Assembly (NCBI GenBank): GCA_030765785.1 | Contig: JAVCCC010000044.1 | Coordinates: 1,417-65,416 of the forward strand | Reading direction: 5' to 3' | DNA from: Candidatus Aceula lacicola | GTDB taxonomy: Bacteria; Omnitrophota; Gorgyraeia; Zapsychrales; Aceulaceae | DNA length: 64,000 nt | In this document: positions 9,101 to 56,205 of the stretch, piece by piece | Layout: each line of letters begins with the position of its first letter | Position numbering within the stretch: the stretch's first letter is position 1 | Program-made: the position numbers and the translations under genes | The notes under the pieces: model-generated | What the model was told of the DNA's origin: nothing | Database searches by the model: none | Seen by the model: only the letters and a program-made list of their open reading frames with translations

Positions 9101-9625
9101 TTATTCTCCAGCAATTTCACCGCTTGGCAAAAATGTTGGCAACGCACGAGCGGAGAGCTCTTTGTCCATCATCAAAATACCATTTCCTTCTTTCCCAATA
9201 TATTTTAGTTTTCCTAAAATATCACTCGGATTCTTTTCTTCTTCAACTTGCTCAGTGACAAACCAATCTAAAAAAATTATAGACGCATTATCGTTGTCTT
9301 TTTGAGCCATGACATAAAGATCATTGATACTTTTTGTAATAAACTTTTCATGCGTCAATGTTTTCTCAAAAATATCTTGAACAGAAGAAAATTTAGAATC
9401 TGGTTTATCAATCGCCTGAAGCTCAACCGCTTCTCCTCGCTCACCAATAAAATTATAAAACTTCATCGCATGAGAAAACTCCTCTGATGCCTGAATCTTC
9501 ATCCAATGAGCAAATCCATCTAAACTTTCACTCTCAAAATATGCAGACATCGCTAAATAAAGATACGCTGAAAATAACTCTCTATTAATCTGATCGTTCA
9601 TCTCTTTAACTAATGTTTTATTCAT
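9101..9625 (-). CDS. ftn: Non-heme ferritin
   Basis: 174 aa with ferritin diiron-site residues (NRELFSAYLYLAMSAYFE, EEFSHAMKFYNF). Confidence 0.88.
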   Translation of the reverse strand: MNKTLVKEMNDQINRELFSAYLYLAMSAYFESESLDGFAHWMKIQASEEFSHAMKFYNFIGERGEAVELQAIDKPDSKFSSVQDIFEKTLTHEKFITKSINDLYVMAQKDNDNASIIFLDWFVTEQVEEEKNPSDILGKLKYIGKEGNGILMMDKELSARALPTFLPSGEIAGE

Positions 9626-9689
9626 TATAAACCTCTCTTCGATTTCTAATAAAATAAGTATACTCTTTTTTAAAAAAATCGCTATTTTT

Positions 9690-10232
9690 TTATCCCAAAA
9701 AGCTTAAATCTGCAGGCTCATAATATTCTTTTGGATGCTTGCAAGATGGACAAGTTTCTGGCGGCTCTTTGCCTTCATGAATAAATCCACATTTGGCACA
9801 TTTCCATTTAATCGACTTTTCTCTCTTGTAAAGGGTGCCATCCTCAACCATCTTTAAAAGCTTTCTATAGCGTGCCTCATGCTCAACTTCAACTTTTGCA
9901 ATCTGCTCAAAAAGACGCGCAGCATCTTCGAAGCCTTCTTCTTTTGCTTCTTTTGAAAAAGTCGGATACATCTCTGTATTCTCGTAATGCTCACCATCAA
10001 TGGCTTCGTTTAAATTCTTAACCGTATCTCCGATCCCATTAAGAAGCTTAAACTCATCTTTGGCATGCTGCATCTCGTTGGCTGCTGATTCTTCAAAAAT
10101 CTTCGCCACATACACATAGCCTTGTTTTTGGGCTATCTTTGCAAAATAAGTATATTTATTTCGCGCTTGCGATTCACCCGAAAAAGCTGCCATCAAATTC
10201 TTTTCCGTTTTTGTTCCTTTGATATCTGCCAT
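9690..10232 (-). CDS. rbr: Rubrerythrin
   Basis: 180 aa. Ferritin-like diiron domain followed by a C-terminal rubredoxin-like CxxC...CxxC (CAKCGFIHEG...CPSC). Confidence 0.93.
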   Translation of the reverse strand: MADIKGTKTEKNLMAAFSGESQARNKYTYFAKIAQKQGYVYVAKIFEESAANEMQHAKDEFKLLNGIGDTVKNLNEAIDGEHYENTEMYPTFSKEAKEEGFEDAARLFEQIAKVEVEHEARYRKLLKMVEDGTLYKREKSIKWKCAKCGFIHEGKEPPETCPSCKHPKEYYEPADLSFLG

Positions 10233-10348
10233 TTTGTTTCCTCCGTATTATAATGTTACTATTGTTAACTTTTTAAACCCAAGCGACTTTTGAATCTCAA
10301 TATCTGGGCCTGCTTGGCATTATTTAAATTTTGTCTTTTGGTTCTTTA

Positions 10349-11083
10349 TTAATACCCTACAAAATTTTCTGCCTTTATCTTCTTTTCATCGCACCCAATT
10401 TCTAAACAAATATTTTTCATAACAACAACCATCTTCGGCGGTCCAAAAATGAAAATCAGCCGCTCTTTACAGTCAGATAGATGTTCTAAAATAAAATTCT
10501 TATCAATCAATCCTTTAAAGAATTTCTTATCTTTTGGCTCACCTTCGGCAACCGTCCAAACAATTTGAAAATTATGATGCTGATTGTTCCAATCTTCAAG
10601 CTCTTTTTTAAAAGCAATATCCTCTTCCTTCATGTTCGAATAAAGAAGCCTCATATCAGAAGAAATATTATTCTCTAAAACATGTTCAATAATAGATATT
10701 GCAGGCGTAATCCCAATTCCTCCGACGATAAAAGAAACCTTTTCATGCAAAGAATCAAACGTACAGGTTCCCATCGGTCCGTTCATTAAAACTTCATCAT
10801 CTTTTTTTAACGACCAAAGCCTTTGAGAAAAATTACTTTCTGAACGTCTTTTGGTCACTTCGATATATTCTTTCTCCGGCGCACACGAAAAGGATAAATA
10901 TTTATTCAAATCTTTATTATCTTTGTTCAGCTCATCAAAAAATACTTTTAAAAACTGACCTGGAGCAAATTCGACCTTATTCTCTGGTGAAAACCGAAAA
11001 CTTTCAATCGCCTCAGCTCTCTTAATCCGCTCTATAAATTTTACCCTAAATTCTCTCATTTTTTCTTCTTTCCATTCAAGCAT
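10349..11083 (-). CDS. FAD/NAD(P)-binding oxidoreductase (ferredoxin-NADP reductase-like fold). The true start is possibly the internal Met at 11059.
   Basis: The FAD-binding portion has ...KVEFAPGQFLKV. The NAD-binding portion has GGIGITPAISI and LIFIFGPPKMV. Overlaps the upstream Fur-family gene. Confidence 0.6.
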   Translation of the reverse strand: MLEWKEEKMREFRVKFIERIKRAEAIESFRFSPENKVEFAPGQFLKVFFDELNKDNKDLNKYLSFSCAPEKEYIEVTKRRSESNFSQRLWSLKKDDEVLMNGPMGTCTFDSLHEKVSFIVGGIGITPAISIIEHVLENNISSDMRLLYSNMKEEDIAFKKELEDWNNQHHNFQIVWTVAEGEPKDKKFFKGLIDKNFILEHLSDCKERLIFIFGPPKMVVVMKNICLEIGCDEKKIKAENFVGY

Positions 11084-11475
11084 CCAGCGCAGGTTCCATA
11101 AAAATATCCTTGAAAATCATCAATAATATGCCCATCCACCGTATTTGTTCTAAGGGCACTGCAAACCGGCATGTGAACATCAAAAATTTTATTGCAAATT
11201 CGACATGAAAAATGATGATGCGGTTCTTTTTTCATCTCATAAAAAGATTTGTTAAAATCAATCTTTATTTCCCGAAGCAATCCCTTAGCGCAAAAATTCT
11301 CTAAAATTGAATAAACAGTCCCTAAAGAAATAGCTGGCACCTTTTTTTGTGCTGCCCGATAAACTTCATCAGCACTCAAATGCCCTCTCGCTTTATTGAA
11401 AGCAAGATACACCGATAAACGCTGTGGTGTCACTTTAATTTTGAGTTCTCTTAAGATTTCGCTTGTTTGCTGCAT
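11056..11475 (-). CDS. Fur-family transcriptional regulator (PerR-like, by context)
   Basis: 139 aa. N-terminal winged helix (TPQRLSVYLAF), His cluster HHHF, and CxxC...CxxC (CRIC...CAGC). Sits inside a peroxide/oxygen-detoxification operon. Confidence 0.82.
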   Translation of the reverse strand: MQQTSEILRELKIKVTPQRLSVYLAFNKARGHLSADEVYRAAQKKVPAISLGTVYSILENFCAKGLLREIKIDFNKSFYEMKKEPHHHFSCRICNKIFDVHMPVCSALRTNTVDGHIIDDFQGYFYGTCAGCLNGKKKK

Positions 11476-11948
11476 GATTTTATTTTTGTCTTTCGCGTCG
11501 GTGGCGATAAATCGATAATATTATCAATTTTAACTTCGATGAGATATTTTGGATCTATCGGGAGGTGTGCCTCAAAATGCTTTTTTGATTTTGCTCCAAT
11601 GCTTACGCTTCTTTGTACTCGCTTTGTAATTCTTTGAACAACACGAGCTTCCCATTGATCAAGAATTTCTTTTTTTATTTCACTCTTTGGAATAATTTTC
11701 GCTTTTCCTTGAAGGACGTACCCTTTAAAAGCATGCTCATCTAACGCTGTAACACTGATCGTTGGATTCTTTTTTAAATTACAAAATGTGCGATACAAAT
11801 AAAGATCTGTTAAAAAAAGCTTGTCCTTTTTTCCAACGCCCACAAGACCCTTGACCGAGCAATGAATCGCGCCTTTTTCATTCAACGTTGAAACAATAAC
11901 GGCATGGCTTTTTTCAAAAAACTGAACAATCTCTTTTGGTAATTTCAT
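11451..11948 (-). CDS. Pyridoxamine 5'-phosphate oxidase-like FMN-binding protein
   Basis: 165 aa. N-terminal HAVIVSTLNEKGAIHCSVKG pattern typical of the split-barrel FMN-binding family. Confidence 0.55.
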   Translation of the reverse strand: MKLPKEIVQFFEKSHAVIVSTLNEKGAIHCSVKGLVGVGKKDKLFLTDLYLYRTFCNLKKNPTISVTALDEHAFKGYVLQGKAKIIPKSEIKKEILDQWEARVVQRITKRVQRSVSIGAKSKKHFEAHLPIDPKYLIEVKIDNIIDLSPPTRKTKIKSCSKQAKS

Positions 11949-11950
11949 TC

Positions 11951-13126
11951 TTAACCTATCTTCTCTTTTATCTTATCGACAACACTTTTTAAATTTTCCA
12001 ATTCGCTGTCATCAGGAACAAACTGACTATAGCGCCCTTCACCCATCAACTCAAAACCAGCATCAGCAATCGATTGCTCAAACTCTTTAAATCCTATTTT
12101 GGACCAACCATAAGAACCAAATGTAGTGGCATAATGATTTCTTGTTTTCAAACCTTTTAAGTACATTAAAAGCGCTGCCATTGTTGGAAGCATGCGATTA
12201 TTTAAAATTGGCGTTCCAAAAAGCACAAACTTTGAAGTCAAAATGTCTGTCACAATATTAGAAATATGCACCTCTTGAAGCCCAACCATTTTAACTGGCA
12301 AACCTTGAGCATCAATCAAATGTTTAAACTTTGTGGCCATTTGACGCGTTGAATTCCACATCGTATCATAAGCAATCAAACATTTATTTTCTGATTCATA
12401 ATTAGCCCATTTATGATACAAAGATAAAATTTCTAATAAATCTTCTTTTGTTCGCCATATAAGTCCGTGTGACGGACAAATCATCTCAATAGCGAGCTTT
12501 GAGGCTGCTTCTAAAGCCTTTAAAACCTGATTGCCATATGGCATGACAATATTGGCATAATATTTAGCTGCATCCTCAAAAACAATGTCAGAGCCAACCT
12601 CATCGGCATAGCGTTCATCGCTTGCCCGATGTTGGCCAAAAGCATCATTCGAAAAAAGAATCTTATCGTGCGCAGAATATGTGACCATAGAATCTGGCCA
12701 ATGAACCATTGGCGTTAAAAGAAAGCTTAATGTTCTCTTTCCTATGTTAAGCTCATCGCCTGTGTTGACAATCTTAAACTTCCAATCTTTTTTGAAATGT
12801 CTTTTAAGCTCTTGGGCCCCCTTAGGCGAACAAACAACTTCAGCATTCGGGCAATATTTTAATATTGCATCAATCGATCCAGAATGATCCATCTCTGTAT
12901 GATTGGATATAATATATTTTATTTTCGCAGGATCAATGACTTCTTTAATACGATCAATCATTTCTTCAGCGCCATAATGCTTAACTGTATCGATTAATAC
13001 TGGAGCTTCATCCAAAATAAGATACGCATTATACGTTGAACCTACCGGCGTTTCATATCCATGAAAATTCCTAAGATCCCAATCAATATAACCTGTCCAA
13101 TGGATATCTTTAACAATTTGATGCAT
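11951..13126 (-). CDS. fprA: Flavodiiron protein (rubredoxin:oxygen/NO oxidoreductase): metallo-beta-lactamase domain plus flavodoxin domain
   Basis: 391 aa. HTEMDHSGS diiron motif. C-terminal flavodoxin-like domain. Confidence 0.9.
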   Translation of the reverse strand: MHQIVKDIHWTGYIDWDLRNFHGYETPVGSTYNAYLILDEAPVLIDTVKHYGAEEMIDRIKEVIDPAKIKYIISNHTEMDHSGSIDAILKYCPNAEVVCSPKGAQELKRHFKKDWKFKIVNTGDELNIGKRTLSFLLTPMVHWPDSMVTYSAHDKILFSNDAFGQHRASDERYADEVGSDIVFEDAAKYYANIVMPYGNQVLKALEAASKLAIEMICPSHGLIWRTKEDLLEILSLYHKWANYESENKCLIAYDTMWNSTRQMATKFKHLIDAQGLPVKMVGLQEVHISNIVTDILTSKFVLFGTPILNNRMLPTMAALLMYLKGLKTRNHYATTFGSYGWSKIGFKEFEQSIADAGFELMGEGRYSQFVPDDSELENLKSVVDKIKEKIG

Positions 13127-51129: not shown

Positions 51130-52176
51130 TTATGCGCTAAAATACGCTCCCAATAAAAAAACACCAACAGCCATTAAAAAAGAAAATAAACTTACCGCAA
51201 ATGCTTTCATTCCTTCTTTCGAGAATACATTTCTTAAGCTTGCATTTAACCCAATCGCCGCCATAGCAGTACTCCAAAATAACGTCAAAACAATTTTTAA
51301 TACTGGACGCAAAAACCCAACAGCTGGGAAAAAAGTAAAAATCAATCCACCCAATAAAAATCCCCATAGATACCAGGGAATATAAAACTTTCCTTTAGAA
51401 AAGCTCGCAAAAAGAGGAATTAAAAATAACAATCCTGCATACCGAATTGCCTTAACAGAAATCGCCAAAGACTTTATATGACTTGGAAAATCTCGAACAG
51501 CGACCTTTACAAATCCAGTAAACTGCAAAACGCTCCCAGAAAGAACACCATAGTTTACATCTGACATTTTGAGCCAAGCAGAAACTAGCGGCAAAACAAT
51601 AAATAATCCGATCATCCCTGATATAAAAATTGGGACCAGACTGACAGAAACTTCATCAGAATCAGCATCGATAGCCTTAGAGGCAATCACAATCGCAGAA
51701 GCACCGCAAATGGTGGAGCCAGTTGTCAAAAGATATCCCACTTTTTCCTTAAGCTTCAAAAGTGAAGATAAAAAAAGCGCCGTAATAATATAAATAATAA
51801 AGACGAACAAAATTAGAAAAATAAAATCAAACTCAATGGATGAAAATACTTTAAAATTTAAATTAACGCACCCATACAAAACGACTCCAATTGGAATCAA
51901 TAAGGCAGGGGCAGAATTGATGCTAGAAGAATATTGATTGGGAATACGAAAAAAAGAATTGATAAAAATACCTAACAACATAGCTATAAAAAGAGGATCA
52001 AGTAAAGGATTTGCGGTAATCTTTTGAAGTGCAAAAGCCACAAGTCCAATAATAAAAGCCAGAACAATACCGCATTTATTTTCCAGCGTTTTCTTTCGAT
52101 TTTCCACAGCATACCTCTTCTCTTTAAGTTCGACTTTAATATGCGAACTCATTATACCGCAAAAGCTTATAAACAA
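51130..52176 (-). CDS. Polytopic membrane protein (YeiH/UPF0324-like putative transporter; uncertain)
   Basis: 348 aa with about 10 transmembrane helices. Confidence 0.45.
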   Translation of the reverse strand: MFISFCGIMSSHIKVELKEKRYAVENRKKTLENKCGIVLAFIIGLVAFALQKITANPLLDPLFIAMLLGIFINSFFRIPNQYSSSINSAPALLIPIGVVLYGCVNLNFKVFSSIEFDFIFLILFVFIIYIITALFLSSLLKLKEKVGYLLTTGSTICGASAIVIASKAIDADSDEVSVSLVPIFISGMIGLFIVLPLVSAWLKMSDVNYGVLSGSVLQFTGFVKVAVRDFPSHIKSLAISVKAIRYAGLLFLIPLFASFSKGKFYIPWYLWGFLLGGLIFTFFPAVGFLRPVLKIVLTLFWSTAMAAIGLNASLRNVFSKEGMKAFAVSLFSFLMAVGVFLLGAYFSA

Positions 52177-52200: not shown

Positions 52201-52425
52201 CTATAGCCTTTCAAAGAGAATGAACTTTTCAGAGGCGCAAGACTGAGCGCAACTTGCACATGATGCTGATCGGCATTCAATACTTTTCTTTCGAATAACT
52301 CCTTTTTTAATCAAAATATCAAGCATTTTCTCCATAGCCGTTGGATCGACTTGAAAATGAATAGAGAGTTCTTCCAAAGATAAAATTTTTTGCTTTTCAA
52401 ATAGTTCTTTTATTTTAATAAGCAT
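52201..52425 (-). CDS. feoC: FeoC-like small winged-helix protein with a Cys cluster
   Basis: 74 aa, immediately downstream of feoB. CRSASCASCAQSC cluster. Confidence 0.5.
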   Translation of the reverse strand: MLIKIKELFEKQKILSLEELSIHFQVDPTAMEKMLDILIKKGVIRKKSIECRSASCASCAQSCASEKFILFERL

Positions 52426-52438
52426 ATTAATATTTATA

Positions 52439-54700
52439 TTAATTATTATTTTTTGACAAAATCCTTAAAAAAGTAAAAAATACAAAAAACATCACTCCAA
52501 CAAACGCAATCCACCCTAATGATTCTTCCGGATGCACAGAAAACCGAGCTACCTGATAAAACAAAACAGCTGCAGACCATCCCAGCAAGGAAGAATAAAA
52601 AATACTGAACAATGTCCACCTCAAATTTAGCTCAGCATAGATAGCAGCAACAGTTGCGATACAAGGCATATATAAAAGGATCATCAAGAGATATGCAAAC
52701 GCTCCAGCTTTTCCATCAAAATTATTAACCAAAGAAGATCGAAAATCTTCTGATGCATCATACCCTTTGGCATCGCCTTTTTTTTCTTTAACAAAAACCG
52801 GAAGATTTAATTGTCTTATATTCTCTGAAATAGATAAGAATGCCTGCTTTATATTCGACCCAAAATTAAAATCTTCATCGAGGCCTTCTCTGCTTTCAGT
52901 CTTCCTATACAATGAATCCAATGTGCCAATAACAGACTCTTTAGCAAAAACTCCAGTAAAAGTTCCAACAACAGCCGGCCAATTAGCTTCCCTTATCCCC
53001 ATTGGTTTAAAAATTGGAAGCGCAAATTGTCCAACCTGTTTTAAAATAGAATCTTTTTGTTGCCCTTTTGAATTTAATCCACCTCCAAGAGCATACAAAA
53101 GATTTAAAATAACCACAACAAAGAGAATGACTTTTCCTGCTTTTAGGATAAATCCTTTGAGCCTCTCCCATGTGTGAACCAAAATTCCTTTTAAGGTCGG
53201 TTTATGATACGGAGGGAGCTCCATGATAAAGGTTGAAGGCTCTCCTTTCAAAACAGTATTTTTAAGCAAAAATGCCGTCATAACCGCGCAAAGGATTCCA
53301 ATCATATATAAAGCAAAAATAACCAAGCCTCCATTGGAAGGAAAAAAAGCGGCGGCAAACACAGCATACACGGGAAGCCTGGCTCCACAGGATATAAAAG
53401 GATTAATCACAATGGCTAACGTGCGATCACGAACACTTTCCAGTGTTCTCGTCGACATAATCGCGGGTACATTACACCCAAAGCCCATCAACATTGAAAC
53501 AAATGCTTTTCCTGGAAGCCCTACAGCACGCATCGCTGAATCCATGACAAAAGCAGCTCGCGCCATATATCCCGAGTCTTCTAAAATTGCTAAACAAAAA
53601 AACATAAAAAATATCGTTGGGATAAACGTTGAGACAGTTTGAATCCCTCCTCCTACTCCATCAGCTAAAAATATCTTAACGATCTCTGGCACATGCATAA
53701 ACGTCAAGACAGCTCGGAATCCATCAACAAAAATCGTGCCAGACAAAGAATTAAAAAAATCAATAAAACATCCTCCAAAGCTAATCGTAATCCAGAACGT
53801 TAAATACATAGCTAAAAGAAAAATAGGAATACCTAAATATCGATTAAGAACAAACTTGTCGATCAAATCAGAAATATCTTTTTTAGCCAATCTTTTTTTA
53901 TTAATAACCTTCTTACATACAGAATTAATAAATCCATATCGGCTATCCGCAATAATAACATCTGCGTCTTCTCCTAGGATTTCCTTAGATCTTTGCTTCA
54001 CGCGATCAAGGATATCCGTCAAAGAATTCTTGCCACGTATCTCTTTTAAAAAATCTTCTTCCTCTAAAAGCCTGATAGCCACCCATCGAATATTATTAAA
54101 ATCTTTTTGAACATCCAAAGTATTCTTGAGCTGCGATGCAATCTCCGAAATGCCTTGCTCAATCTCATCTGGAAAATAAATATTTGCTCTAGAAATTATT
54201 TTCTTGTTTAGAGCCTCTTCAATTAAGTCTTTTACATCATCAATACCTTGATTTTTACTTGCAACAGTACAGGCAATCGGCATATCTAAGTCTCTTGAAA
54301 GCTCTTCAATTTTGATGCGAATTCCGAGATCCTTCACAATATCCATCTTATTTAAAATGACAACGCATGGAACCTGCATCTCAATAAGCTGAGTTGTGAG
54401 ATATAAATTGCGCTCAAGACTTGACGCATCAACAATGTTAATCACCAAATCTGGCTTTTGGGTAAAAATATTTTCTCTAGCAATCTTCTCGTCTAGAGAA
54501 GATGCTGATAAAGAATAAATTCCAGGAAGGTCGACGACCCGGACAGATCTCCCTTGATGCGTATAGTTTCCTTCTTCGCGCGAAACCGTAACGCCTGGCC
54601 AATTGCCAACTTCTAGACGAGACTTTGTTAGACTATTAAATAATGAAGTTTTGCCGCAATTTGGATTTCCAACCACAGCAACAGTTAATTTTTTCTGCAT
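52439..54700 (-). CDS. feoB: Ferrous iron transporter FeoB
   Basis: 753 aa. N-terminal G-domain (VAVVGNPNCGKTSLFN) plus polytopic permease. Confidence 0.93.
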   Translation of the reverse strand: MQKKLTVAVVGNPNCGKTSLFNSLTKSRLEVGNWPGVTVSREEGNYTHQGRSVRVVDLPGIYSLSASSLDEKIARENIFTQKPDLVINIVDASSLERNLYLTTQLIEMQVPCVVILNKMDIVKDLGIRIKIEELSRDLDMPIACTVASKNQGIDDVKDLIEEALNKKIISRANIYFPDEIEQGISEIASQLKNTLDVQKDFNNIRWVAIRLLEEEDFLKEIRGKNSLTDILDRVKQRSKEILGEDADVIIADSRYGFINSVCKKVINKKRLAKKDISDLIDKFVLNRYLGIPIFLLAMYLTFWITISFGGCFIDFFNSLSGTIFVDGFRAVLTFMHVPEIVKIFLADGVGGGIQTVSTFIPTIFFMFFCLAILEDSGYMARAAFVMDSAMRAVGLPGKAFVSMLMGFGCNVPAIMSTRTLESVRDRTLAIVINPFISCGARLPVYAVFAAAFFPSNGGLVIFALYMIGILCAVMTAFLLKNTVLKGEPSTFIMELPPYHKPTLKGILVHTWERLKGFILKAGKVILFVVVILNLLYALGGGLNSKGQQKDSILKQVGQFALPIFKPMGIREANWPAVVGTFTGVFAKESVIGTLDSLYRKTESREGLDEDFNFGSNIKQAFLSISENIRQLNLPVFVKEKKGDAKGYDASEDFRSSLVNNFDGKAGAFAYLLMILLYMPCIATVAAIYAELNLRWTLFSIFYSSLLGWSAAVLFYQVARFSVHPEESLGWIAFVGVMFFVFFTFLRILSKNNN

Positions 54701-54704
54701 ATTT

Positions 54705-55397
54705 TTAAGGTTTATGAACTAAGATTTGTTTTGCTTCGCCACGACCAATGGCAATGCGTGCATCTTTAAGCTCTAAAACAATTGGACCAAAATGAGAATT
54801 TTTAACAATTTTAAAATCTCCGCTAGGGACAAGGCCCAAGTCCGTTAGACGCTTACGAAGGCTTGCGCCTCCATCTATTCTTGCTAACCGAACAATTTGG
54901 TTTTCGGAAACAAGCGTAACAGGAATAACTTCGTTGGATGTTTGTTGGCATTGCTCGCAAATGCCATAAACTTCTAGCTTATGGAATAGCGGTCGACACC
55001 CTTTTTGAAAAATCAAAGAATTCTGAAGCGATTCAAGCTGATCACTTGTAAACTCCATAACTTTCTTACATTTTACACAAACGAAATGATCATGATGATT
55101 CTCAGGATGCAAATGTTCATAACGCTTAAAATCTTCTCCTTCGAATTGAAGCTCAGAAGCAAACCCAATCTCAGAAAACAGCTTTAATGACTTTTCAGTG
55201 TCTGCCTTACTTACATTAATTCCTTTGCCTTGAAGAATTTGGTAAAAATCATCGACTGATATATGTTTTTCACAGGTAGAAAATTCTTGTACAATGCCAG
55301 GGCAAATGCTTTTATCAATACGCCCTTTTTTGTGCAAAAGATCACAAAGATGATCCTGAACCTCTTTTGAAATAATATAAAAATCTCCGTATAGCAT
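54705..55397 (-). CDS. Fur-like metal-sensor domain fused to a C-terminal FeoA domain
   Basis: HHDHFVCVKCKKVMEF ... CEQC (Fur structural-site signature), followed by an FeoA SH3-like domain (IVRLARIDGGASLRKRLTDLGLVPSG). Confidence 0.65.
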   Translation of the reverse strand: MLYGDFYIISKEVQDHLCDLLHKKGRIDKSICPGIVQEFSTCEKHISVDDFYQILQGKGINVSKADTEKSLKLFSEIGFASELQFEGEDFKRYEHLHPENHHDHFVCVKCKKVMEFTSDQLESLQNSLIFQKGCRPLFHKLEVYGICEQCQQTSNEVIPVTLVSENQIVRLARIDGGASLRKRLTDLGLVPSGDFKIVKNSHFGPIVLELKDARIAIGRGEAKQILVHKP

Positions 55398-55879: not shown

Positions 55880-55904
55880 AATCTATTCTAATCTCTCCTT
55901 AAAA

Positions 55905-55922
55905 TGTTAGACAAGTCTAACA
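55905..55922. promoter_or_regulatory. Palindromic operator TGTTAGAC-AA-GTCTAACA (8-bp perfect arms), a putative DtxR-family box
   Basis: Read directly. It lies about 25 nt upstream of the dtxR-family ATG and loosely resembles the DtxR/IdeR box TTAGGTTAGCCTAACCTAA. Confidence 0.5.
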
Positions 55923-56034
55923 AATTAAACATAAAATGTCAAGTTTTTAAGAAATCCTAAATTTAACTATTGTGTTATAAAGAAAATATGTTACAATTTC
56001 ATTTAGTAAAGCATTTTAAGGAAAGGATGTTGCA

Positions 56035-56205
56035 ATGGCTCACAAAATTACAGAAAAATGTACTGCATGCGGAACATGTGTTCCAGAATGTCCAGTAGAA
56101 GCGATCAACGTTGGCGATCCTATCTACACAATTGATGCTGAAAAATGCATCGACTGCGGCGCTTGCGTAAGCGTATGTCCTACCGAAGCGATTGTCGCTG
56201 AATAA
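56035..56205 (+). CDS. 2x[4Fe-4S] ferredoxin (56 aa; missing from the ORF track because it is under 60 aa)
   Basis: MAHKITEKCTACGTCVPECPVEAINVGDPIYTIDAEKCIDCGACVSVCPTEAIVAE contains two CxxCxxCxxxCP motifs. GGAAAGGA Shine-Dalgarno. Confidence 0.85.
   Translation: MAHKITEKCTACGTCVPECPVEAINVGDPIYTIDAEKCIDCGACVSVCPTEAIVAE

Follow-up and report, generated by a model that had tools for sequence, protein, structure and literature searches.

In a 64,000-nucleotide (nt) stretch of the genome of Candidatus Aceula lacicola (the window hereafter), a single gene encodes a protein in which a Fur-type metalloregulator is joined to an FeoA domain, and this gene lies between a dtxR-like gene and feoB. We propose, with a probability of roughly one in two, that the Fur part of this fusion is a Fur-derived iron sensor that no longer binds DNA and acts through FeoA on the iron transporter FeoB, while the DtxR-like protein sets the transcription of the operon. 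The proposal is built on profile searches, structure prediction, and comparison with relatives of the fusion in other genomes, whose loci and proteins are cited below by L and P numbers.

The gene is one intact, ATG-initiated open reading frame (ORF) of 230 codons at 54705-55397 on the minus strand, with a GAGGA ribosome-binding site 5 nt upstream of the ATG, within the end of the preceding gene. Residues 35-144 match the Pfam FUR profile (PF01475) over positions 13-121 of its 121 (E 4.5e-19, 69 bits, cut-off 23), and residues 160-228 match the Pfam FeoA profile (PF04023; E 1.6e-13, 51 bits, cut-off 23). A sequence-only reading of this DNA had placed Fur and FeoA domains in one 230-residue product and had named these two profiles as the check; both matched far above their cut-offs, and the motifs it quoted were all found in the ORF, namely HHDH (residues 101-104), CVKC (C107/C110), and CEQC (C147/C150). 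Against the NCBIfam equivalogs for Fur, PerR, and Zur, the fusion stayed below threshold (64 bits versus cut-offs of 146-220), and it is therefore best described as a Fur-family protein outside the named orthologue groups.

An AlphaFold2 model of the fusion, built from 23 family members, had a mean predicted local distance difference test score (pLDDT) of 84. It shows, in this order, a winged helix, an alpha/beta metal-binding domain, and a five-stranded FeoA barrel (pLDDT ∼90), the winged helix being formed by helices 11-23, 29-40, 48-57, and 64-77 together with a beta-hairpin (pLDDT ∼90). When the model was compared with the PDB using Foldseek, the top 50 matches were all Fur, PerR, or Zur proteins aligned over ∼130-150 columns, led by PerR (2fe3), Campylobacter jejuni Fur (CjFur), and the DNA complexes of Magnetospirillum Fur (MgFur; 4rb1, 4rb3). 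Together with the profile matches, this confirmed that a whole two-domain Fur fold and a genuine FeoA domain lie in one chain. The Fur-type signature of the sequence-only reading thus stood for the metal-binding and dimerization half, but it is not that half alone, as a winged-helix N-domain is present too. The idea that the N-terminal part is a mere extended linker of FeoA was ruled out by the FUR profile match and the Fur fold recovered by Foldseek.

For a comparison by residue, we placed 30 fusions in one alignment with 44 distinct Fur proteins that stand alone and are encoded in the same set of loci, and we mapped the residues of MgFur onto the fusion through a HMMER alignment, taking residue roles from the literature (PMC4506495). 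The site 1 ligands of MgFur (H33, E81, H88, H90, and E101) correspond to H45, E94, H102, H104, and E115 of the fusion, and those of site 2 (H87, D89, E108, Q111, and H125) to H101, D103, E122, Q125, and H139. Its Zn(Cys)4 site consists of C107, C110, C147, and C150. All ligands of the three sites are invariant in the 30 fusions. Column entropy in the metal domain was 1.30 bits in the fusions versus 1.72 bits in the stand-alone proteins, i.e., the fusions are the more conserved. The stand-alone set used in these comparisons came from loci retrieved with HHDHF[IV]C and [FY]HKLEVYG and is biased toward Fur proteins with a query-like metal domain. The Fur part probably binds metal and dimerizes.

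The surface with which Fur reads DNA was compared in the same alignment. The loop L1 contacts of MgFur (K15, T17, Q19, and R20) are replaced by I27, K29, I31, and C32, and its recognition-helix contacts (T54, Y56, and R57) by D66, E68, and K69, with T67 of the fusion lying between. A Tyr equivalent to Y56 is found in none of the 30 fusions versus all 44 stand-alone Fur proteins, the Arg57 equivalent in 3/30 versus 42/44, and the R20 equivalent in 4/30 versus 43/44. In MgFur, the R57A substitution abolishes DNA binding and Y56A nearly does so (PMC4506495). The recognition helix is also more variable in the fusions (column entropy 2.41 versus 1.17 bits) and carries a net charge of -2.0 as compared with +0.9 (Mann-Whitney p 1e-8), while the mean net charge of the whole N-domain is -3.8 in the fusions (range -9 to 0) and +2.5 in stand-alone Fur. 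The ratio of pairwise identity in the N-domain to that in the metal domain was 0.49 for the fusions versus 0.82 for stand-alone Fur, which corresponds to a divergence about twice as fast. In a rough neighbour-joining tree built from just the Fur domain, the fusion fell into a clade of 109 sequences, all without the Tyr-Arg pair and 105 of them fusions, and no more than 9-10 of 130 fusions retain T-V-Y/F-R. The other Fur-family gene in the window (11056-11475), which serves as a control within one genome, keeps both VTPQR and GTVYS. The recognition helix of the fusion differs freely even among loci that have one common operator. The N-terminal region had been called divergent in the earlier reading, and the alignment with stand-alone Fur agrees, with the DNA-contact residues replaced. 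By these sequence comparisons, the fusion has lost the residues by which Fur reads DNA.

Two cysteines of the N-domain, C18 and C32 (helices 1 and 2; 55302-55346, minus strand), recur in the feoB-linked Omnitrophota subgroup, C18 in 8 and C32 in 12 of the 23 aligned family members, and neither is present in the paralogues linked to a Na/Ca-exchanger gene. C32 occupies the position of the DNA-backbone Arg20 of Fur. The two could make a redox site or an extra metal site.

The promoter of the operon points to another reader. It matches 10 of 12 sigma-70 positions, has an extended TG, and its -10 box TAGACT lies at 55914-55919. The palindrome TGTTAG-N6-CTAACA that overlaps this box occurs once in the window, versus 0.18 expected, and once each in L001, L003, L004, and L005, 40-65 nt upstream of the DtxR-like start; L077 has it with 1 mismatch, bringing the total to all six loci (6/6) in which a dtxR-like gene is followed by the fusion and feoB. 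It was absent from the other 63 loci scanned. In L001, L003, L005, and L077, a TTGACA/TTGACT box stands 5' of the operator. The operator of L001, TTAGGCTAACCTAA, comes close to the classical DtxR/IdeR box. Scanning the window with the Fur box consensus GATAATGATAATCATTATC at up to 3 mismatches gave no match, a scan that a divergent box could escape.

The DtxR-like protein aligns with Bacillus subtilis MntR, and its best PDB relatives are MntR structures (6kta, 1on1). Ligands D8, E11, H77, E102, and H103 are kept, and a Cys stands at the position of MntR E99, like C102 of DtxR. These six positions are invariant in orthologues and in triple fusions, single chains that are described below, and the recognition helix is conserved among the loci with the common operator. 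Because the operator is of DtxR type, no match to the Fur box consensus was found, and the helix of the fusion varies, we regard the DtxR-like protein as the reader of the operon. Most likely it represses transcription of the operon, its own gene included, and the DNA would not be read by the fusion.

Divergent from the feo operon lies a gene for a 56-residue 2x[4Fe-4S] ferredoxin (56035-56205, plus strand). The DtxR-type operator is situated in the 155 nt between the two, and the ferredoxin gene may be iron co-regulated with the operon. In L001, the same ferredoxin-like sequence lies 5' of the operon.

The order dtxR-like gene, Fur-FeoA fusion, feoB, feoC-like gene with tight spacing, first read off the DNA alone, agrees with the coordinates and profile matches: the successive gaps are 2, 4, and 13 nt. 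In L077, the dtxR-like gene and the fusion overlap by 4 nt, and 2 nt separate the fusion from feoB. The fusion is predicted to be translationally coupled to feoB, whose product matches Pfam FeoB_N, FeoB_Cyto, Gate, and FeoB_C. With feoB, an FeoA domain, and an FeoC-like protein with 4 Cys, the composition of an FeoABC-type operon is present. In all six frames of the window, the fused FeoA is the only FeoA-like domain, and it is the only FeoA within L001, L004, and L005. A search of PDB sequences with it at E<=10 returned 9 matches, all of them FeoA proteins, and no DtxR-family SH3 domain was among them. The fusion adjoins feoB on its 5' side in the window, L001, L003, L004, L005, and L077. Every bacterial feo operon identified in a published survey has at least one feoA or an FeoA domain fused to FeoB (PMC8749426), and FeoA binds the G-domain region of FeoB in a nucleotide-dependent manner (PMC8980893). 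From this published rule, and from the fused FeoA being the sole one in the operon, we infer that it is the partner of FeoB.

In the mechanism that we propose, cytoplasmic Fe2+ would fill the regulatory sites, including H45 of the N-domain bridged to E94, H102, and H104 of the dimerization domain, and this would close the Fur "caliper" of a dimeric Fur part. In place of DNA, the output would now act on the tethered FeoA domains, and perhaps also on the re-surfaced N-domain, such that the engagement of the FeoB G-domain by FeoA would be altered, giving a fast post-translational feedback on Fe2+ import. Both the interaction with FeoB and the sign of its effect are what we infer; the direction would most likely be inhibition of uptake at high iron. 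Operon transcription would be set separately by the DtxR/MntR-like repressor at TGTTAG-N6-CTAACA over the -10 box, and in the promoter fragment 55880-56034, it is the DtxR-like protein, not the fusion, that would be expected to protect TGTTAGACTTGTCTAACA. That the fusion may couple metal sensing to FeoB had been suggested in the sequence-only reading; the loss of DNA-reading residues with retention of the metal sites strengthens the suggestion, which is still a proposal and has a serious rival.

To see how widespread the architecture is, a search of 5.8 billion proteins gave 31 relatives, down to 41% identity, all with Fur plus FeoA in ∼230 residues except one truncated member. They come mostly from metagenome-assembled genomes (MAGs) of Candidatus Omnitrophota and are annotated as "transcriptional repressor", "Fur family transcriptional regulator", or "FeoA domain-containing protein". 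A profile search of 1.84 billion cluster representatives returned 106 matches below 1e-30, and both domains were present in 136 of the 177 proteins collected; at 50% identity, these 136 represent more than 100 clusters. Among the GTDB species genomes scanned, the fusion occurred in Omnitrophota and Thermodesulfobacteriota (Desulfobulbia, Desulfurivibrionaceae, and Desulfobacterales) as well as in further lineages, and it was found too in MAGs deposited without assigned taxonomy. A survey of databases had been named in the earlier reading as a check of the architecture, and the continuous fusion indeed recurs, in the 31 close homologues and in more than 100 clusters.

The genes around the fusion take several forms. 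The layout of the window (dtxR-like gene, fusion, feoB) is shared by L001, L004, L005, and L077, and L003 has the same genes plus a feoC-like one and a feoA that stands alone. The Desulfobulbia layout begins with a canonical fur gene (157-161 residues, SVYR/SIYR intact), after which come the gene for a degenerate Fur-FeoA-FeoA protein (334-357 residues) and feoB. In L015, the order is fusion, feoA, feoB. An unfused fur (TVYR intact) followed by feoA and feoB is found in L009, L010, L017, and L019, and this layout is a plausible origin of the fusion. Finally, in L002, L069/L070, and L078, feoB is missing and the fusion, preceded by CNNM, DAO, and VIT1 genes, is followed by a Na/Ca-exchanger-family gene, DUF362, and a ferredoxin gene. 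These paralogues are 46-53% identical to the window protein and lie 13-48 nt upstream of the exchanger gene; in L002 and L078, the fusion directly follows a gene for a 372- to 376-residue VIT1-family protein, a putative iron exporter.

Some members of the wider family deserve separate mention. The canonical fur directly 5' of the degenerate Fur-FeoA-FeoA gene lies at 5473-5946 in L007, 5461-5934 in L008, and 5430-5915 in L012, and the intact/degenerate pair may reflect a duplication followed by a division of labour. An Omnitrophota copy in L006 (5968-6692) is spread over two overlapping frames, an apparent frameshift or assembly error within the FeoA domain. P0125 (221 residues) has the reverse order FeoA-Fur with an intact TVYR (Pfam FUR E 5.5e-35) and has probably arisen independently and kept its DNA binding. 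P0059, P0081, P0082, and P0146 (292-336 residues) carry tandem complete Fur domains with xVYR intact in each and look like single-chain "Fur dimers".

Several points weigh against a Fur-derived sensor that acts on FeoB. The loss of the canonical contacts would be no proof that all DNA binding has gone. Close paralogues stand beside a Na/Ca-exchanger-family transporter and VIT1 without feoB (L002, L069, and L078), and Desulfobulbia copies in L011 stand beside no transporter at all; in none of these four loci is the fusion next to feoB, and a coupling to FeoB has to accommodate the paralogues beside other transporters. Extra FeoA copies exist, stand-alone in L003 and L015 and as a second fused domain in L007, L008, and L012, so the fused FeoA need not be the partner of FeoB; as the view is of 64 kb, another feoA elsewhere in the genome is possible. 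The triple fusions, one of which is encoded first in an operon that has a separate feoA as well as feoB, point to a role beside the repressor. The inter-domain geometry of the AlphaFold2 model is unreliable (predicted template modelling score 0.48), and the placement of FeoA relative to Fur was left uninterpreted.

The triple fusions lead to the strongest alternative, which we consider unlikely but worth serious attention, namely that the fusion senses iron as an accessory subunit of the two-domain DtxR-like regulator and lends it, in trans, the FeoA/SH3-like domain as a third domain, as in DtxR/IdeR, with a transcriptional output. Six representatives of 389-458 residues combine a DtxR helix-turn-helix domain, a DtxR metal domain, the Fur part, and FeoA in one natural chain, and they share with the DtxR-like protein of the window both the DtxR ligands and a C-terminal W-L-x-x-F-x-x-(Y/F)-C-K tail. 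In L072, on which our knowledge of their context rests (the contigs of L068, L071, and L073 are too short or uninformative), the triple fusion heads an operon in which an OprB-family porin gene is followed by a stand-alone feoA and feoB. Furthermore, the DtxR-like protein of the window is without the SH3-like domain of DtxR and IdeR, and its gene is 2 nt from the fusion in the window and overlaps it in L077. On the other hand, the metal site of the DtxR-like protein is complete and invariant, and Desulfobulbia pair the fusion with a canonical Fur and no DtxR. There is no DtxR neighbour beside the VIT1/Na_Ca_ex paralogues or in L015. The C-terminal domain is FeoA-like in sequence and unlike the SH3 domain of the DtxR family, and no other FeoA is present in the operon to serve FeoB. 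Co-translated adjacent genes may also fuse without any physical interaction of their products. That the DtxR-like protein needs the Fur part to sense metal is not supported, since none of its own ligands is missing.

An ordinary repressor, i.e., a DNA-binding Fur-family regulator of altered specificity whose SH3-like accessory domain makes it convergent on the three-domain DtxR layout, is improbable in our judgement. It would be the simplest role where no regulator gene adjoins, and it agrees with the database names. The winged-helix fold is kept at high confidence and the metal site that activates DNA binding by Fur is intact, and one of the proteins with TVYR (the 9-10 Fur-FeoA fusions and the one FeoA-Fur protein) precedes a feoB-like gene. 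However, the residues that DNA binding requires have given way to others, in many cases acidic (D66, E68), and the replacements vary even among orthologues with one operator. The N-domain charge of -9 to 0 in the fusions and the failure to find a Fur box in the window argue in the same direction. Operator changes, moreover, go in step with the DtxR helix: the promoters of the triple fusions share GTTCGAC-TT-GTCGTAC, related to the operator of the window, and this shift is in line with the different DtxR recognition helix of the triple fusions.

We would likewise give little credence to an iron-dependent adaptor or chaperone, in which a dimer of the Fur part binds or buffers Fe2+ at the membrane and FeoA docks FeoB, VIT1, or the Na/Ca-exchanger family in order to hand iron on or to co-ordinate import with export. 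The cluster of CNNM, DAO, and VIT1 genes, fusion, and Na_Ca_ex gene in three independent contigs, where the genes are 13-24 nt apart, would fit it. A membrane peptide of the FeoB-associated type (PF12669, E 4.5e-5) may be present at the N terminus of P0129, but this match is below the cut-off and the contig shows no feoB, and we gave it little weight. To our knowledge, FeoA is known only as a partner of FeoB or as the third domain of DtxR, and there is no evidence that it binds other transporters. The sites of Fur are regulatory in type, with micromolar affinity (PMC4506495), and not transfer sites. As for a frameshift or mis-assembly that joins separate fur and feoA genes, the unfused loci exist and the L006 copy looks frameshifted, but such an artefact is effectively excluded because the continuous ∼230-residue architecture recurs across independent assemblies and lineages, and the fused Fur part is systematically unlike unfused Fur; with the continuous ORF, this equally rules out two separate genes.

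The features discussed here and the adjoining genes are listed in Table 1. The FeoC-like protein stays below the cut-off of the NCBIfam equivalog for gammaproteobacterial FeoC (14 bits versus 111), and among the related loci only L003 has an orthologue, 3' of feoB. Its cysteines follow the pattern C-x4-C-x2-C-x3-C in an operon of Omnitrophota type, and in a published survey, FeoC was mostly found in Gammaproteobacteria (PMC8749426). The gene for a PF03601 membrane protein possibly closes the transcription unit; no convincing terminator was found between it and the feoC-like gene, and its conservation does not extend to the related loci examined. Elsewhere in the window, the conventional 139-residue PerR-like regulator encoded at 11056-11475 (minus strand) belongs to an oxidative-stress cluster (9101-13126) and overlaps its 5' and 3' neighbours by 25-28 nt. 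Read from the ORF translations, the cluster also encodes a ferritin (9101-9625), a rubrerythrin (9690-10232), a reductase (10349-11083), and a flavodiiron-type protein (11951-13126).

Table 1. Positions of the fusion domains, the promoter elements, the operon genes, and related gene clusters
Feature	Position	Strand	Details
Fur-type winged-helix N-domain, residues 1-85	55143..55397	-	recognition helix residues 62-76, nt 55170-55214
Fur metal-binding/dimerization domain, residues 86-152	54942..55142	-	HHDH 101-104 (nt 55086-55097), CxxC 107/110, CxxC 147/150
FeoA (SH3-like) domain, residues 160-228	54714..54920	-	PF04023; ∼7-residue linker to the Fur part
-35 box TTGACA	55937..55942	-	TTGACA-17 nt-TAGACT, best sigma-70-like site on the minus strand there
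Operator candidate, perfect palindrome TGTTAGAC-TT-GTCTAACA (TGTTAG-N6-CTAACA)	55905..55922		overlaps the -10 box
DtxR/MntR-like two-domain metalloregulator, 159 residues	55400..55879	-	PF01325 E 5.5e-16, PF02742 E 2.6e-16; without SH3-like third domain
feoB, 753 residues, N-terminal G domain, no fused FeoA	52439..54700	-	NCBIfam FeoB equivalog 743.7 bits, cut-off 683
FeoC-like winged-helix protein, 74 residues, C-terminal 4-Cys cluster CRSASCASCAQSC	52201..52425	-	PF09012 E 8.4e-15
PF03601 (YeiH-like) membrane protein	51130..52176	-	PF03601 E 2.8e-45; 24 nt past the FeoC-like gene
Paralogue clusters with Na/Ca-exchanger-family gene	L002 4850-7697; L069 and L070 6786-9659; L078 3858-6665		
Triple fusions P0092, P0094, P0095, P0098, P0100, P0124	locus L072 5001-6302		

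The fusion resembles several known systems. With the Fur family (Fur, PerR, and Zur; 2fe3, 4rb1/4rb3, 8j6w, 5nbc), it shares the two-domain fold, the site 1 and site 2 ligands, HHDH, and Zn(Cys)4, and it differs from them in lacking the contacts K15, T17, Q19, R20, T54, Y56, and R57, in its acidic and fast-evolving N-domain, in its C-terminal FeoA, and in having no Fur box nearby. The order of its modules (winged helix, metal-binding/dimerization, SH3-like) is that of the three-domain DtxR/IdeR proteins, which also belong to iron-responsive systems and whose SH3-like third domain is classed in Pfam FeoA. In contrast to DtxR/IdeR, its first two domains are of Fur type, match neither PF01325 nor PF02742, and are not homologous to those of DtxR; its SH3-like domain is FeoA-type, a DNA-reading signature is missing, and a separate two-domain DtxR-like gene adjoins. 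In Chlamydia, YtgC-YtgR is reportedly a DtxR-like repressor fused to an ABC permease, from which the repressor domain is released by cleavage to bind DNA; both there and here, a domain that regulates iron is fused to part of the uptake machinery, but the sensor of the fusion seems to have no DNA reading left, and its partner is a soluble accessory domain. Like stand-alone FeoA and FeoA-FeoB fusions (Bacteroides fragilis NFeoAB; PMC8980893), the fusion has an FeoA-type SH3-like domain directly 5' of feoB. FeoAB fusions likewise tether FeoA covalently to a partner, which in the present case is a metal sensor and not the transporter.

A literature search found no description of a Fur-FeoA fusion protein, and its "Fur-feoA" matches referred to the Fur-feoAB1 operator complex. 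A 2022 survey of FeoA architectures covered FeoA, FeoA-FeoA, and FeoA-FeoB and removed "non-Feo" fusions before analysis (PMC8980893), and a 2022 paper on Feo evolution goes no further than to note that, in some cases, "FeoA has an additional domain" (PMC8749426). The architecture is already visible in databases, where it is automatically annotated as a repressor.

Altogether, the fusion joins a well-understood iron switch, Fur, to FeoA, with the DNA output apparently discarded. How FeoA works and how FeoB is quickly shut off once iron is sufficient are open questions, which a small soluble fusion makes testable. It is tempting to speculate, though here we lean slightly toward doubt, that a whole Fur clade, which spans several phyla rich in anaerobes and comprises at least ∼100 clusters at 50% identity, gave up DNA binding and became an allosteric Fe2+ sensor that acts post-translationally on Feo via FeoA, and maybe also on a DtxR-type repressor. 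If so, it would be the first member of the Fur family that does not bind DNA, as well as the first device dedicated to iron feedback with FeoB as its direct target. The triple fusions hint at a physical link, so far unexplored, between the two main bacterial families of iron regulators. If true, the Fur family would reach beyond transcription factors, and a systematic annotation error, "transcriptional repressor", would be corrected.

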